DNA from: Podospora anserina
Lineage: Eukaryota
NCBI GenBank assembly: GCA_017654855.1
Contig: CM030337.1
Coordinates: 3,224,001-3,288,000, forward strand
Length of the DNA: 64,000 bases
Reading direction: 5' to 3'
Positions within the stretch are counted from its first letter, which is position 1; each line of letters begins with the position of its first letter. Made by a program: the position numbers and the translations under genes. This document shows positions 6,277-38,407 of the stretch, in pieces. The notes below the pieces were generated by a model. It saw only the letters and a list, made by a program, of their open reading frames with translations, was not told where the DNA came from and did not search any database.

Positions 6277-7438
6277 ACGTATATTATAAGCGAGTCGTAC
6301 ATATAAGCGAGTCGTACAGTCTCCACCACGACGCGTCCTCCTTACACCTAACATCAATTTTTTCCACAACCCAACATGCCTCCTACTTCAAAGGAAGCCA
6401 GGATACTCTTAGCCCTTGAGGCTCTCCAAAAGGACGAAAAATTAAGCCTCCGAGCTGTAGCTAAGCTTTATAACGTACTACCTATGACTCTCTCTAACCG
6501 ACGCGCCGGCCGGCCTGCACGACGCGATATAACACCCAATTCGAAAAAGCTGACTCAATCGGAAGAGGAAGCTATTGTCCGATATATTATTAAGCTATAT
6601 GCGCGAGCTTTTCCACCAAGATTGCGTGGTGTGGAAGATATGGCCAACCAACTGCTACGCGTACGTAACGCGCCCCCTATTAGTAAGCTCTGGGCACATA
6701 ACTTCGTCAAACGCCAGCCACAGCTCCGTACGCGTTTTACGCGTAGATACGATTACCAGAGAGCTAAGTGCGAGGATCCAAAGGTTATTGCCGTATAGTT
6801 TACGCTCGTACAGAACACTAAGGCCAAGTACGGTATTGTAAATAACGATATCTATAACTTCGACGAGACTGGGTTTATAATAGGTATTATCTTTACGGGT
6901 ATAGTAGTTACGACCTCGGACGGCCTTAGTAAGGCAAAACTGGCCCAGCCTAGTAACCGCGAATGGGTAACGGTAATCCAGGGAGTTAATGCCCTCGGCT
7001 GGGCCATCCCTCCTTTTATTATTTTAGCCGCGCAGTACTACCTTGCCAACTAGTATACCGAGTGCAACCTACCGTCTACTTAGCGTATCGTAACCACCGA
7101 TAATAGCTGGACTATTAATCTAGTAGGCCTAGATTAGATTAAGTACTTCGATTATTATATAGCGTCCCGTATAAAGGGTAAATACCGTTTATTAATCCTC
7201 GACGGCCACGAAAGCCACCACTCGACCGAATTCGAGCGCCACTACTAGCAGAATAATATTATTACGCTCTACATACCTCCATACTCCTCCCACCTCCTCC
7301 AGCTACTCGATATTAGCTACTTTGGGCCGTTAAAACAGGCGTACGGTCGCCAGATCAAGGACTTAATACGCATACATATCAACCATATAAGCAAGCTCGA
7401 GTTCCTCTATGCCTTCCGCGAGGCTTTCTTCGCCTCTA
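6277..7438 (+). mobile_element. pogo/Fot1-type (Tc1-mariner) DNA transposon, left half, RIP-mutated
   Basis: TA then left TIR ACGTATATTATAAGCGAGTCG at 6277. Transposase from ATG 6376 with HTH/CENP-B region (SLRAVAKLYNV, LTQSEEEAIV), then YNFDETGF and LILDGHESH DDE motifs. Many TAG/TAA stops from C>T/G>A changes. Confidence 0.93.
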
Positions 7439-7876
7439 TGTCACAACCCTGGGGTATGGACGAGAATAACGATTGGTTGTGGAACCACGGGAGCAGGGGC
7501 CAATCGGGAAAACACCTAGGAGAGCCAATCACAGGGAGGGACGGTGATCCGTGCGATCAGAGCACTGATCAGACTGAGCAGGCCAGGCCGGGGTGATCAG
7601 TGTGATCAGGACACTGATCAGGCTGAGCGTAAGTGATCAGTATACTCGGGACACTGATCAGAGGAATCACGGCTAGGAAAAGAAGTCTATATATACGGAG
7701 GAACTGGCTGGTGTAGATAGACAGTTCCGCAGTATGCAATTCACAATTGTATTCACGGTATCTTGTGTTTACATTGAGACATCTTGTTGTGCACTGTCTA
7801 GCTGCACCGAACCAATTGTCAGAAGTTACCTTCAACCCGTATCCCTTTCAGAGGTTCTGTACAGGGGTTCGTCACA
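7439..7876 (+). mobile_element. Solo LTR of Ty3/gypsy family (LTR-1)
   Basis: TGTCACA...GTTCGTCACA termini; TATA box (TCTATATATACGGAGGAAC); 3' half near-identical to the four other LTR copies in the window. Confidence 0.93.
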
Positions 7877-10289
7877 CCTTCCTCTTCTCCTCCTTCCTCT
7901 CCTCCTCCTTCCTCTCCTCCTCCTTCCTCTCCTCCTCCTTGCTCTCTTCCTCTTCGCCCTCCTCCTTTTCCCTCTTCTTCTTCTCGGCTCCCAGACGAAG
8001 CGAGATATACTGGGCCGCTTTGATAGCAAAACACATCGCTGTCAAAGTGGGATTCGATGCGTTCTTGCCGGGGATGACATTCAGGCCCCCCACGAAGAGG
8101 TTGTTGACACCATGGATCTGGGAGAACTTGTTGCAACATGAATCGTCCTTTTTCTCTCCGGCCCTGGTGGTGCCGCAAACGTGGAGCGCTAGGCCATTTT
8201 CCATGAACTGCGGCTCCGAGCCAGGGAGATAGCCACCTAGAACCCCAGCAACCTCTTCCATATGCTTCATCATCTGATGAGTAAGTTCCCGGTCTGCGTC
8301 GCCGAGGCGGTAGAAGAAGGTAGGTTGCGGCATCCCGTAGGCATCCTTGACCTTTGTTGTAAACTTGACGCAATTGTCCTTTGTTGGTTCCACTGGGCCA
8401 AAGAAGCGCAAATCCACAATGGTCCGCTTGTCGATGTTCGGGGGCACTGCGCCGTAAGAGAAGGCATCCCGATGTATCTGGGTGTGCCACGGTTGTTTCT
8501 CGGAAACGGGGAGCGTGACCTGAGGATCCAGATCGTTGAAAGGAAATGGTAACTGATCCTGAGGGTAACGGCCTTTTTGAGTCTCCAAATGCTTCTTGAT
8601 CTTCTCGTCCCATTTCTCCTTCCTGAGCGAGTCCCAACCGTCGTTTTTCGGGTCATCCTTTGGGTATGGGTGAGCGCCGTAGACTGCCTTGATCCAGCGC
8701 CTATCCAGGACAACTTGGCAAAAACACATGGTTTGCTCGGTGAGGTAGTGACCCTATGACATGAAATTATAACTGATTAGTACCAGACTGGCAAACGATA
8801 ATCGAGTATATAGACAACTTGGAGTACATACCAGAGCTGGAAGCTCGAGGAAGGGTTCTACCACTTCCTTGTCGCTAAGCCTCTCGACACAATGAGACAC
8901 GGAGTTGGGGCCAACCTTGGTCCATGTCTTGGTCTTAGTAGTGGTCTCGCCCGTCCGAAACCCCGAATTGAATAGCAACTGTGGAGTGAGTATAGGTCCA
9001 CCGCAAATGATGTATACCCTGGCTTTTACTTCGTCCAGCTGGTTGGTTAGTAGCGAGCGGACCTTGGCATTCTCCACGATCCCTGCATCTCCACTGGCAT
9101 CCTTTGTGTTCTTGATGATGGTGAGCTTCTCGCAGAGCCACTCACTTCTCAACTCGAGCTTTTTGCTGAACTCGGGTTTAATCTTCTCAAGCACTGTGTG
9201 CGACGAAGACCAGGTGATAAACTCAGAGCCGTCTCGCTTGGCCGCAAGAGGGAGTGCGAATGCCGCGGGTTTCTGGTCTCCATTCTCGTCCTTTTCTCCT
9301 TCGAAATGATCATTCAGGATCTGCTTGACCATGTCTTGGCGGATTGAACCCTCAAGGACGTCGGTATGTGTTTCAATCAGCTTTTCCGCTTCGCTATACA
9401 GCCCCTCCCATTCGTTCTGGAGAAGTGGAGAACGTTCCCTTAGATGCTGTCGGGGAGTTGAACAAGTCCAGCTAAATCAACGCGGTCAGCGAGTGGTTAG
9501 AAATGACTTTTTCCCCAGGAGATGCTAAGCTGGGCGACAGATGCCAACCAGAAAGGCCAGCATGACTAGGGTCACCTCATACTGGGTTGACATGCCCCCT
9601 ACATTCCTGGCCACAGCATTGAGGCCAAGGTTTAAGGCAGGGTCCTGATAAGGATTCTGGCTATGCTGCACTTGTTTTCCTTCTCTGTTTGCTGCTGTTA
9701 GCTTCCCCGAGTGCACTACCTAATGGTGGTGGATGTAGTTAGATTTGCTCACCCTGACCAAGACACTGGAGGCAGAGTAGGGACTACCGATTCATCGGTT
9801 GGCACCGAAGTTAGTTGCAAACTTCCCTTTATCAGGAGCATCAGACCGTTAGCCTAGGCTATCTGCTGTGTACTCGATCTGCCAATGCCTACTTTGATGA
9901 CGCTGATAGGGAGACTGTTAGCTGACTGGCACAAACTGGACTCCCAAAGTAGGTAAATATACTCACTGGACGAAGGAGTCAATATCTTTTTGAAAGCGTA
10001 CAGCATTCTTCTTGTGCTCTCCGCGTTTTTTACTCTCCCTGTTTAAGGTATAAGGTTAGAACAGTCAGCGGGAAATTACAACAAGGGACGTACTCTGCGC
10101 CAGCCTCGACCATGAGCACCGTGTGCCCATCATTCACTAGGATCTTGGCAAACGTGGCACCAAGGGGGCCGGAGCCCACAACTGAGGCAGAAGCTTGTCA
10201 GTCTGGACACCACGAAACACATTCAGCGCAGCGGTGAATGGTAAGTACTTACTTAGAGCATCGTACTGGTAGTGGTCCTTCTCGCCCAT
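7872..10289 (-). CDS. Pyranose 2-oxidase (AA3_4 GMC flavoprotein), multi-exon
   Basis: Spliced by hand: YDALIVGSGPLGATFAK (FAD binding), GEHKKN..FQKDIDSFVHVIKG, VGGMSTHWTCSTP (covalent-FAD His), ICGGPILTPQLLFNSG, PWHTQIHRDAFSYG, GLALHVCGTTR and NPTLTAM (catalytic His/Asn). Frame intact across GT-AG introns. Confidence 0.92.
7877..7985. repeat. Low-complexity pyrimidine tract with 15-bp units (CCTTCCTCTCCTCCT), encoding the KEEER tail of the oxidase
   Basis: Directly visible tandem units. Confidence 0.85.
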
Positions 10290-37093: not shown

Positions 37094-37284
37094 CGTACCT
37101 CCTCTTTCCTATTAATTATTTTTTACGGGTATTTATATTATATTTATAATATAATACCCCCCTTCCTAGGTTAATATCCTAATAACCCTATTTAAAACCT
37201 TTATTAATAATTAATTTTATTTATTATAAATTTTATTTTTATTTTTCTTTACCATTATAATATTTAATCGCGTAAATCTAAACG

Positions 37285-37703
37285 TGTCACAGACCAACCA
37301 TATAGCAAGGCAGAGTGGGGACTGCGGCAGGCCGTGATGACCAATCAAATAACAAATAACAGCGGGGCTGCAGGACAGTGGGGCGCTCACCTCTTGGCAG
37401 AGGTGAGCCGGCTCGCCAGGAGCGCTGGGTGAGCGAGGTGAGCCAGGATGGATCACCAGGAGCGCTTGGTGATCGAGGTGAGCCAGGTACGGAGGTACCT
37501 GGAGGATTGAGGTCTATATATACGGAGGAACTGGCTGGTGTAGATAGACAGTTCCGCAATATGCAATTACAGCTTATATTCACGGTATCTCGCGTTTACA
37601 TTAAGACATCTTGTTGTGCACTGTTAGCTGCACCGAACTAATTGTCAGAAGTTACCTTCAATCGAGTATCCCTTTCAGAGGTTCTGTAAAGGGGTTCGTC
37701 ACA
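37285..37703 (+). mobile_element. Solo LTR (LTR-4), same family, different 5' half
   Basis: TGTCACA...GTTCGTCACA; conserved TATA and 3' half; followed by CTCTA. Confidence 0.93.
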
Positions 37704-38407
37704 CTCTATAATAGAGAAGAATATATAGGGTAGCTTTGCGGGTACTGGCTTTATACCGTACAATCCTGAAGGGGTGCTTTCTAAACTAAATATAAAGCTT
37801 CGTACGCTAATACCCCAGATTTACGGCCCGGTACTCCATAACTTTAGGTATTCTAGATATTATAAAACCCCCGAGAGGCCAATTTATAGTTAACGCTTAT
37901 TAAGACTTATATTACTAACTATCAAAATAGCTCCCCGACTTTAATGCTAACTACGGTAGACTAGCTTACTAAGGGTATAACGGCTATAATGCACTAGGTG
38001 GCTCTCCTTCGTGCAGAGGTCTCTTCGCTCCGTAAGGCCAATAAGGCACTAAGTAAGTGCCGGAGAGCCAAAAAAATACGTGTGAGGCTTGGAGGGTCAC
38101 TTACTGTACAAGAGGCACAGGATCTACTGGATCAGAAGGCCCTGGGCGAGCACGTAATCCAGGAAAATCGATAAAGTGGTGGTGGTACAGGGGGGTCTCG
38201 TACGAAGACTCAGTGCTGTGGTGTATGCGGCAAGCCTGGCCATAATGCGCGCACTTGCCAGGAGGCTGCATATGCCTCAGACTCAGCTGTTTCTGATGTT
38301 ATTATAGTTGGTTGATAGTTTCGTTGTATTATAATGGAGGATGGTATTCGAAGGGTGGTCAAAAGTGACCGGCCCACTTATATGACCGACTCGCTGATAA
38401 AGTACGT
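37704..38407 (+). mobile_element. pogo/Fot1 transposon, right half
   Basis: Continues the transposase (SIIEKNI*GSFAGTG, a RIPed form of SMTEKNIQGGFAGAG); C-terminal zinc knuckle CGVCGKPGHNARTC; right TIR ending ...CGACTCGCTGATAAAGTACGT at 38407. Confidence 0.92.

Follow-up and report, generated by a model that had tools for sequence, protein, structure and literature searches.

A gene block enclosed by crapaud LTRs inside a split pogo transposon of Podospora anserina: a probable case of exchange among LTRs of separate insertions

Results

A single RIP-degraded pogo transposon on Podospora anserina chromosome 6 is split at one point, and two crapaud LTRs, LTR-1 and LTR-4, enclose 29.4 kb between its halves. 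The best explanation is homologous exchange among LTRs from three distinct crapaud insertions, which probably produced this arrangement. We infer the recombination itself from features observed in the window (the whole stretch of 64,000 nucleotides analysed), namely the anatomy of the locus, the continuity of pogo, the chimeric flanks of the LTRs and their unrelated U3 parts.

The left half of the Fot1/pogo element (6277–7438, + strand), presumably the one named Pat, carries the left terminal inverted repeat (TIR) and transposase residues 1–354, with five TAG stops. It terminates in ...GCCTCTA at 7438, and LTR-1 starts at 7439. The CTCTA target duplication, arising from a crapaud insertion into pogo, has its first copy at 7434–7438 and its second at 37704–37708. 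The latter opens the right half (37704–38407, + strand), in which pogo restarts at TAATAGAG 3′ of the duplication, followed by transposase residues 354–556, with one frame change, and the right TIR. When three 557-aa full-length relatives (P0003, P0004, P0006) were used in tblastn, residues 1–354(357) mapped to 6376–7446 and the alignment picked up in frame at residue 354, position 37705, in all three cases. Since it stops and restarts at residue 354, the two halves are exactly contiguous, the 5-bp duplication aside. Excising 7439–37708 (30,270 bp) in silico yielded a pogo of 1,861 bp. The original observation of a restored frame and of a ~1861-bp element with TIRs held, as did, with small corrections, its junctions at 7439 and 37703. 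A match of 5 bp alone is expected by chance about 1 time in 1,000; given residue-exact, in-frame continuity of the 557-aa homologue, chance becomes negligible.

The identity of the element was supported by its domains, ends and size. Its left half was 79% identical to a 557-aa protein with PF03184, relatives having PF05225 and PF03221 too, and both halves together cover residues 1–556 of a DDE transposase with N-terminal HTH domains. The TIRs agree at 26/31 positions (manual count), and the length lies in the ~1.8–1.9 kb range of such elements. The gene is dead, with 5 stops in the left half, 10 in the right half in one frame, plus the frame change. The RIP indices of the left half were 1.60 for TpA/ApT and 0.61 for (CpA+TpG)/(ApC+GpT). 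On its left pogo is flanked by TA and on its right by CA; these 2-bp flanks form an imperfect duplicate as compared with the TA target duplication of Fot1/pogo.

Five LTR copies were found in the window. LTR-1 (7439–7876, + strand; TGTCACA...CGTCACA) is followed by the flank CCTTC at 7877–7881 and has a U3 type of its own. LTR-4 (37285–37703, + strand), flanked 5′ by AAACG and 3′ by CTCTA, has a different U3 type, and both are un-RIPped. LTR-2 (29625–30118) and LTR-3 (36600–37093) are the ends of a nested full-length crapaud (29625–37093, + strand). The fifth, an inverted R-U5 fragment without recognisable U3 or 5′ terminus (28915–29106, − strand; 3′ flank CTTAG on its own strand), corrects an earlier count of four. 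The nested crapaud lies between 5-bp target duplications, CGTAC at 29620–29624 and 37094–37098. RIP has degraded it heavily (internal GC 0.14), and its gag-pol interior gave an RT_RNaseH_2 match (E 5.7e-10, read-through frame), the other domains being unreadable after RIP.

The LTRs have TG...CA ends, a conserved R-U5 and a subfamily-specific U3, and the bounding ones were assigned to crapaud, a Ty3/gypsy family, by their fit to a published description (PMC10787394). Sections of that paper describe 14 crapaud subfamilies, which differ in U3 and keep R-U5. In keeping with that design, only the 3′ ~195 nt (R-U5) are common to all five copies here. LTR-1 and LTR-4 were 92.4% identical across the 3′ 198 nt, and their 5′ halves gave no match at E 1e-3 with a word size of 7. 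Their unrelated U3 parts rule them out as the paired ends of a single untouched insertion. The R-U5 is moreover mosaic: LTR-1 equals LTR-4 for 47 nt (0 differences), after which 16/146 positions differ, while over the same 146 positions the inverted LTR resembles LTR-1 closely (8/146 differ).

Each bounding LTR bears unlike flanks, CTCTA/CCTTC for LTR-1 and AAACG/CTCTA for LTR-4, and the outer pair matches, the pattern expected of ectopic LTR–LTR exchange. This agrees with the contrast drawn originally between a matching outer CTCTA pair and unlike inner flanks. The inner junctions coincide exactly with LTR termini (TG and CA), and neither PBS nor PPT was found beside them, indicating that they were originally the outer borders of two further insertions. 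As one target duplication is common across 30 kb, LTR recombination between different insertions is the only simple route. Chimeric flanks, unrelated U3 and the one CTCTA pair thus support the earlier reading of the locus as a product of such recombination.

The LTRs had been said to flank host genes rather than their own gag-pol, and the content of the un-RIPped block at 7877–28914 bears this out, as judged from Pfam, orthologues and composition. It comprises a pyranose 2-oxidase (Pa_6_8060, about 7875–10289, − strand), AUDH (about 11.4–14.5 kb, + strand), a DUF7580-like ORF (15268–16884, + strand), Pa_6_8110 (17554–19416, − strand), P450-like fragments (about 21–23 kb, − strand) and a PhoD phosphatase (about 23.6–25.7 kb, + strand). 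The stop codon of the oxidase reading frame is contributed by LTR-1, and the C-terminal end differs in three sister species. The oxidase protein alignment is broken into pieces in a manner consistent with retained introns. Between the inverted fragment and the nested crapaud lies a 0.5-kb stretch (29107–29619) with a short motif like the pogo terminal repeat at 29140–29203, a weak local alignment that gives no evidence for a second element. An AT-rich, RIP-like spacer (37094–37284, GC 0.20) ends in AAACG. We found no paper in the Podospora literature under the gene identifiers of the locus.

To the left of pogo lies a remnant of the HET-domain gene Pa_6_8050 (4761–6068, − strand). Four 805-aa orthologues (P0258, P0259, P0261, P0263) aligned by tblastn from residue 379 to 805 at 6068–4761 with 90–92% identity, and their residues 1–378 had no match in the window. 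The gene is broken at 6068, 208 bp off the pogo end. What cut it is neither LTR nor pogo, which indicates that a non-LTR event also reshaped the locus. To the right, the pogo end and the stop codon of a hybrid PKS-NRPS gene (Pa_0_240, 38485–50991, − strand) are 75 bp apart. This gene opens a cluster whose other members include an enoyl reductase-like ADH, the MFS transporter Pa_0_200 and the GMC oxidoreductase Pa_0_190.

Linkage in sister species, read from protein records at contig level with contigs told apart by their length, was mixed. The oxidase and the left-flank gene were on separate contigs in two of three species and neighbours in the third. Two species, P. comata and P. pseudocomata, have the oxidase on one Mb-scale contig and the left-flank HET gene, at full length, on another, as expected from the prediction that the cargo would be found elsewhere in sister species. 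P. pseudopauciseta departed from it: there, gene 8047 of the left flank is directly followed by the oxidase, the two having successive accessions on a single contig. This linkage may mean that the block is native to the neighbourhood and that the PKS block with pogo is the mover. Pa_6_8110 and the PKS block are on separate contigs in the one species having both (P. pseudoanserina), and P. anserina and P. pseudoanserina are the sole species with named orthologues of PKS-block genes. Chromosome-level assemblies exist for the seven Podospora species.

Other records were also compared with the window. In the S mat+ reference records (CDP31266 to CDP31277), accession order gives the same gene order (8060, 8110, PKS-NRPS, 0_200, 0_190), and the C-terminus of the oxidase likewise ends in the LTR. 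Two of the proteins encoded in the window each differ from them at a single residue. Among 24 sequencing runs, 20 (from 7 studies) contain 0.89–0.92 of the sampled words of 2500–12400, a range that does not address the junctions. Exact protein look-ups gave matches for 1/1, 3/10 and 4/10 in three sets. None of four junction-crossing ORFs (6237–6416, 7409–7516, 7438–7593, 28746–29057) was retrieved by exact look-up, which is uninformative, as stored proteins use prodigal-like starts.

Discussion

Exchange among three crapaud insertions would have proceeded as follows. A Fot1/pogo element would have inserted and then been degraded by RIP, after which one crapaud would have integrated into it and duplicated CTCTA. 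A second crapaud, flanked by CCTTC, would have inserted within the pyranose 2-oxidase gene at its very 3′ end, and a third, flanked by AAACG, in an AT-rich stretch. Exchange within the ~195-nt R-U5 common to crapaud subfamilies would then have joined the LTR(s) of the first insertion to those of the other two, leaving 29.4 kb, that is, about six host genes, the inverted LTR fragment and the dead nested crapaud, between the pogo halves. Some observations count against this history. The homology is short (about 195 nt) and ~92% identical, and the P. pseudopauciseta linkage misfits a simple "block from another chromosome" history for all species. The HET break at 6068, the TA/CA flanks of pogo and the absence of any donor scar or reciprocal product from the window count against it as well.

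The evidence at the locus fits a circle, a double crossover, gap repair and two successive exchanges alike. The first of these is a sub-case of the exchange just described: the block would be excised via its flanking LTRs, and one crossover with a solo LTR inside pogo would bring it back in. This route requires just two crossovers with no lasting duplication, and a single crossover would be expected to fall in the 47-nt tract, the longest over which LTR-1 and LTR-4 are identical. The un-RIPped state of the block fits a cut-and-paste move, and most solo crapaud LTRs are reported as un-RIPped in sections of PMC10787394. Yet the product here would be the same as for a double crossover or gap repair, and the window showed no circle, empty donor site, donor scar or reciprocal product, nor any LTR beyond the five copies. 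Besides, RIP is described as inefficient in P. anserina (PMC2441463), so that its absence is weak evidence. We therefore regard a circle as a rather unlikely route. A reversed polarity of events is possible, even if we lean against it. The oxidase block would then be native beside 8047/8050, the PKS-NRPS block with pogo at its left end would be a large insertion into the HET gene, and a later LTR exchange would have swapped the order of the segments. The P. pseudopauciseta linkage speaks for it, as do the restriction of named PKS-block orthologues to two species, with those of P. pseudoanserina off the 8110 contig, and the cut in HET by neither LTR nor pogo. It requires more events, however, and the oxidase of P. 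comata and P. pseudocomata is on another Mb-scale contig than the intact HET gene. The right end of the PKS block, where this reading would place the missing HET half, is beyond the window.

A Starship, that is, a giant tyrosine-recombinase element, could explain the varying location of the block, the LTR pattern being incidental. Such elements shift gene blocks between Podospora chromosomes, with a 4-bp-flanked, TE-mediated insertion reported on chromosome 5 (PMC10936905), and HET-domain and DUF7580-like genes are close by. Yet Pfam searches of ORFs and of all six read-through frames of 19.6–29.6 kb gave no integrase or DUF3435-type match, in line with the original inference of a move that would need no dedicated integrase or Starship captain, and a Starship fails to explain a 5-bp duplication common to LTR termini within one pogo. 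We consider it very improbable. As for misassembly, it is unlikely because the S mat+ records share the gene order and the LTR-terminated oxidase. LTRs are repeats, and short-read contigs seem to stop near LTR-1 and LTR-4, with exact-match proteins on a ~12.04-kb contig for the block and a ~25.46-kb one for the PKS side. Against this, the window is not letter-identical to the S mat+ records and contains no N, and we hold the misplacement of an LTR-bounded contig between the pogo halves to be extremely unlikely.

Two other candidates were rejected. Had the inverted LTR taken part in an inversion with LTR-1 or LTR-4, flanks TAGAG or CTTAG would be expected, and they are absent there. A single giant retrotransposition through RNA does not agree with the differing U3 parts, with the lack of PBS or PPT at the inner junctions or with the oxidase introns, which are apparently kept.

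LTR recombination is usually inferred from breakpoint repeats alone; here, a split transposon and a 5-bp duplication name three insertions, and the exchanges are placed within a 195-nt conserved LTR segment. If correct, the case would show how a small pair of sugar-oxidation genes, along with the genes around it, changes linkage next to a secondary-metabolite cluster. On a more speculative note, and with low probability in our opinion, the oxidase/AUDH block could be a recurrently mobile cassette, with crapaud LTRs serving as portable recombination sites for exit as a circle and re-entry at solo LTRs. This would account for differing chromosomal contexts in species >98% identical, the block itself lacking a transposase.

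LTR-mediated relocation is already known in fungi, and the locus is a fresh example. Ectopic LTR recombination also underlies Ty-mediated rearrangements in yeast. Direct LTRs flanking genes can loop out, and the resulting circles can reinsert, as with the yeast GAP1 circle excised by LTR–LTR recombination. LTR–LTR circular DNA is likewise described in portions of a study of M. oryzae eccDNA (PMC9694575); here, reinsertion into a solo LTR is one conceivable route and no circle was observed. Starships, as partial accounts of Enterprise in Podospora have it, similarly move tens of kb of host-like genes between chromosomes of the genus, but they need a DUF3435 tyrosine recombinase and ends of their own, whereas here the junctions are LTR termini and the window holds no captain.

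Another known system is that of the crapaud copies with disparate LTRs (Westerberg 2024, PMC10787394), of the same family and the same U3-variable, R-U5-conserved design, with mixed-subfamily pairs. According to sections of that paper, 7/150 full copies have disparate ends, for which its authors blame gene conversion or ectopic recombination. Their interior is retrotransposon, unlike the host genes found here, and we found no mention of gene-bearing disparate pairs in main-text parts of that source. A further parallel is AVR-Pita/Inago1 of Magnaporthe oryzae as portrayed in part of Chuma 2011 (PMC3145791): there too, a gene is flanked by LTRs of one family at differing sites in close relatives, and its relocation is proposed to result from homologous exchange between scattered LTRs. 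There, one effector gene is concerned, in contrast with the metabolic and other genes described here, which span about 29 kb. In the present case, a split transposon and a common 5-bp duplication mark the recipient site, so that a single sequence reveals the partners of the exchange.

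Junctions of the split pogo element

The left half of the pogo, a RIP-degraded Fot1/pogo transposon (6277-7438), ended in ...GCCTCTA at 7438 on the plus strand, where LTR-1 began (7439-7876, plus strand, TGTCACA...CGTCACA), directly followed by CCTTC. At the other end of the gene block, AAACG stood directly before LTR-4 (37285-37703, plus strand) and CTCTA directly after it, and the pogo then resumed (37709-38407). Reading both junctions bore out the anatomy put forward in the original prediction, that is, a split pogo with an outer CTCTA pair and unlike inner flanks. Excising 7439-37708 in silico (30,270 bp) yielded a pogo of 1,861 bp, the typical size of a Fot1/Pot2 element, and its ends agreed at 26 of 31 positions by manual count. 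Translation of the left half met five TAG stops, read as X for the homology search; 3,419 relatives were found at E <= 1e-10, the top one being a 557-aa protein of the DDE_1 family with 79% identity. Three full-length relatives of the 557-aa type were then used as tblastn queries against the window. All three placed transposase residues 1-354 on 6376-7437, resumed in frame at residue 354, position 37705, and placed residues 394-556 beyond one frame change in the right half. The split in the pogo, the CTCTA pair and the mismatch of the inner flanks are genuine features, far beyond what chance would give.

An assembly artefact might have produced such an arrangement, but accessions of P. anserina S mat+ follow the window order: CDP31266 (8060, the pyranose 2-oxidase), 31270 (8110), 31273 (the PKS-NRPS) and 31276/31277 (0_200/0_190, an MFS transporter and a GMC oxidoreductase). 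Furthermore, the oxidase frame enters LTR-1, from which its final codon and stop come, and the S mat+ protein has the same LTR-terminated end as that of the window; the C-terminal ends in three sister species are unlike it. The window is not letter-identical to S mat+, the PKS-NRPS being one residue off CDP31273 and Pa_6_8110 one residue off CAP71879. Short-read contigs of about 12.04 kb (gene block) and 25.46 kb (PKS side) seem to end close to LTR-1 and LTR-4, which is neutral for the question of an artefact.

Crapaud LTRs and a proposed history of the locus

Five LTR copies of crapaud lie in the window: LTR-1, an inverted fragment (28915-29106), LTR-2 (29625-30118), LTR-3 (36600-37093) and LTR-4. 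LTR-2 and LTR-3 are the ends of a nested 7.5-kb element with a proper CGTAC target duplication, an interior with a GC of 0.14 and an RT_RNaseH_2 match in a read-through frame (E 5.7e-10). Beside the inverted fragment, at 29140-29203, lies a short stretch similar to the subterminal repeat of the pogo (GACTCGCTTATAAT), either by chance or, perhaps, as the terminus of a further pogo-like element. Homology common to all five LTRs covers only the 3' ~195 nt, starting at the TATA-like GGTCTATATATACGG. LTR-1 and LTR-4 are 92.4% identical over 198 nt, and no match was found when the 5' halves of the LTRs were compared. Crapaud is described as the commonest Ty3/gypsy element in the P. anserina complex, with 14 subfamilies in which U3 varies and R-U5 is kept (PMC10787394); the window LTRs match this published design, U3 differing and R-U5 being kept.

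Neither a primer-binding site (PBS) nor a polypurine tract (PPT) stands beside either inner junction, in contrast to the nested element, where AAAAAGAGGAG precedes LTR-3. The inner junctions are therefore the outer edges of two further crapaud insertions. A single integration leaves two identical LTRs and one target duplication. The LTR-1/LTR-4 pair has the common duplication, yet unrelated U3 parts and host DNA within. The simplest history would comprise three crapaud insertions, in the pogo, in the oxidase tail and in an AT-rich spacer, joined by a pair of homologous exchanges in R-U5. Comparison of the R-U5 parts shows a mosaic (Fisher p 0.014 and 0.007): LTR-1 equals LTR-4 over the first 47 nt, after which 16 of 146 positions differ, and in these 146 positions LTR-1 comes close to the inverted LTR (8/146 differences). 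As a sequence pattern, this is consistent with, rather than proof of, an exchange in the identical 47-nt stretch. Full crapaud copies with ends from different subfamilies have been reported (7/150) and attributed to gene conversion or ectopic recombination (PMC10787394). The original prediction had favored a circle re-entering a solo LTR in the pogo; such a circle would leave the same product as a double crossover, as gap repair or as two exchanges in succession, and the window sequence does not discriminate among these routes.

RIP marks give the order of events. RIP has marked both halves of the pogo and spared LTR-1 and LTR-4, with an abrupt boundary at 37284/37285 (GC 0.20 and index 0.10 in the spacer, GC 0.52 and index 1.24 in the adjoining LTR-4). 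Therefore, the LTRs are probably younger, or too short for RIP targeting. Crapaud solo LTRs are mostly without RIP, according to PMC10787394.

Contents of the gene block

The 7877-28914 part of the block, which includes the pyranose 2-oxidase gene (Pa_6_8060), is un-RIPped (GC 0.50, (CpA+TpG)/(ApC+GpT) 1.09). The block also carries genes for an aldos-2-ulose dehydratase (AUDH cupin, E 1.8e-43) and a PhoD phosphatase, Pa_6_8110, a DUF7580-like ORF and P450-like fragments. Neither an integrase nor a tyrosine recombinase turned up, either in the ORFs that were searched or in the six read-through frames covering 19.6-29.6 kb. The oxidase and AUDH genes lie ~1 kb apart on opposite strands (7875-14500) and have orthologues in several Podospora species; in white-rot basidiomycetes, the two enzymes convert glucose to cortalcerone. 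On the minus strand, read-through frames of 20600-23000 contain a motif like that of P450 heme binding, along with a weak match to 2EXR; with its fragmented ORFs, this stretch may be a decayed gene. A tandem duplication at 26033-26580 has a 274-bp unit in perfect register with 2 mismatches, and these close repeats are evidently un-RIPped.

Flanking genes and linkage in sister species

Linkage was assessed via exact look-ups of ORF proteins, the contig of each named orthologue being recognized by its size. Gene order was inferred from accession order, consistent with the run KAK4675024-28 for 0_190 to 0_240. In P. comata, the full-length 805-aa HET gene 8050 is on a 4,104,172-bp contig and the oxidase on one of 3,964,501 bp; in P. 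pseudocomata, they are on contigs of 4,199,150 and 4,679,545 bp, respectively. The expectation that the cargo would lie elsewhere in relatives thus held in these two species. It failed, at least for the left side, in P. pseudopauciseta, where the accessions of left-flank gene 8047 (KAK4663382) and of the oxidase (KAK4663383) follow directly on each other within a single contig of 4,347,980 bp, on which 8110 also lies. In P. pseudoanserina, a 4,184,097-bp contig carries 8110, and a different one, of 4,722,338 bp, carries the PKS-NRPS together with 0_200 and 0_190. Incidentally, left-flank and block proteins (3677-19416) are unusually diverged for species said to be >98% identical, with identities of 88.6% for 8047, 94-96% for 8050, 92-94% for 8110 and 93.7-97.1% for the oxidase.

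In the window, the HET-domain gene Pa_6_8050 (4761-6276 region) has been reduced to the stretch matching residues 379-805 of its 805-aa orthologues, the part with the HET domain being lost. Its homology ends at 6068, with 208 bp of unassigned sequence before the pogo, and marks an additional breakpoint that differs in kind from the LTR junctions. On the right, the hybrid PKS-NRPS (38482-50991, minus strand, 4,169-codon ORF) was 100% identical, over the part searched (residues 2500-3450), to PODANS_0_240 of S mat+ "chromosome 6, supercontig 3". Named orthologues of Pa_0_240, 0_200 and 0_190 (38485-63300) were found in P. anserina and P. pseudoanserina only, the latter at 98.3-99.5%; among other PKS-NRPS matches, an unnamed protein came next at 74%, and Colletotrichum falcatum and Xylaria curta followed at 72%. 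The distribution is therefore patchy. Given this restricted occurrence, the truncation of the HET gene and the mixed linkage among sister species, with the 8047-oxidase adjacency in P. pseudopauciseta, it may instead be the PKS block (~102 kb) that arrived, bearing the pogo at its left end, with the order of two neighboring segments swapped by a subsequent LTR exchange.

Relation to known cases

Genomes of the P. anserina complex are described as collinear with a few structural variants, and the locus is not among the variants in the sections consulted (PMC10936905). A literature search covering article texts found no description of it. Ectopic recombination via Ty elements is textbook knowledge in yeast. 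In Magnaporthe, ectopic recombination via retrotransposons and solo LTRs is the mechanism put forward for the translocation of AVR-Pita (PMC3145791). The process is of a known kind and the locus is a new case of that kind, the value of which lies in an unusually legible footprint of recombination.
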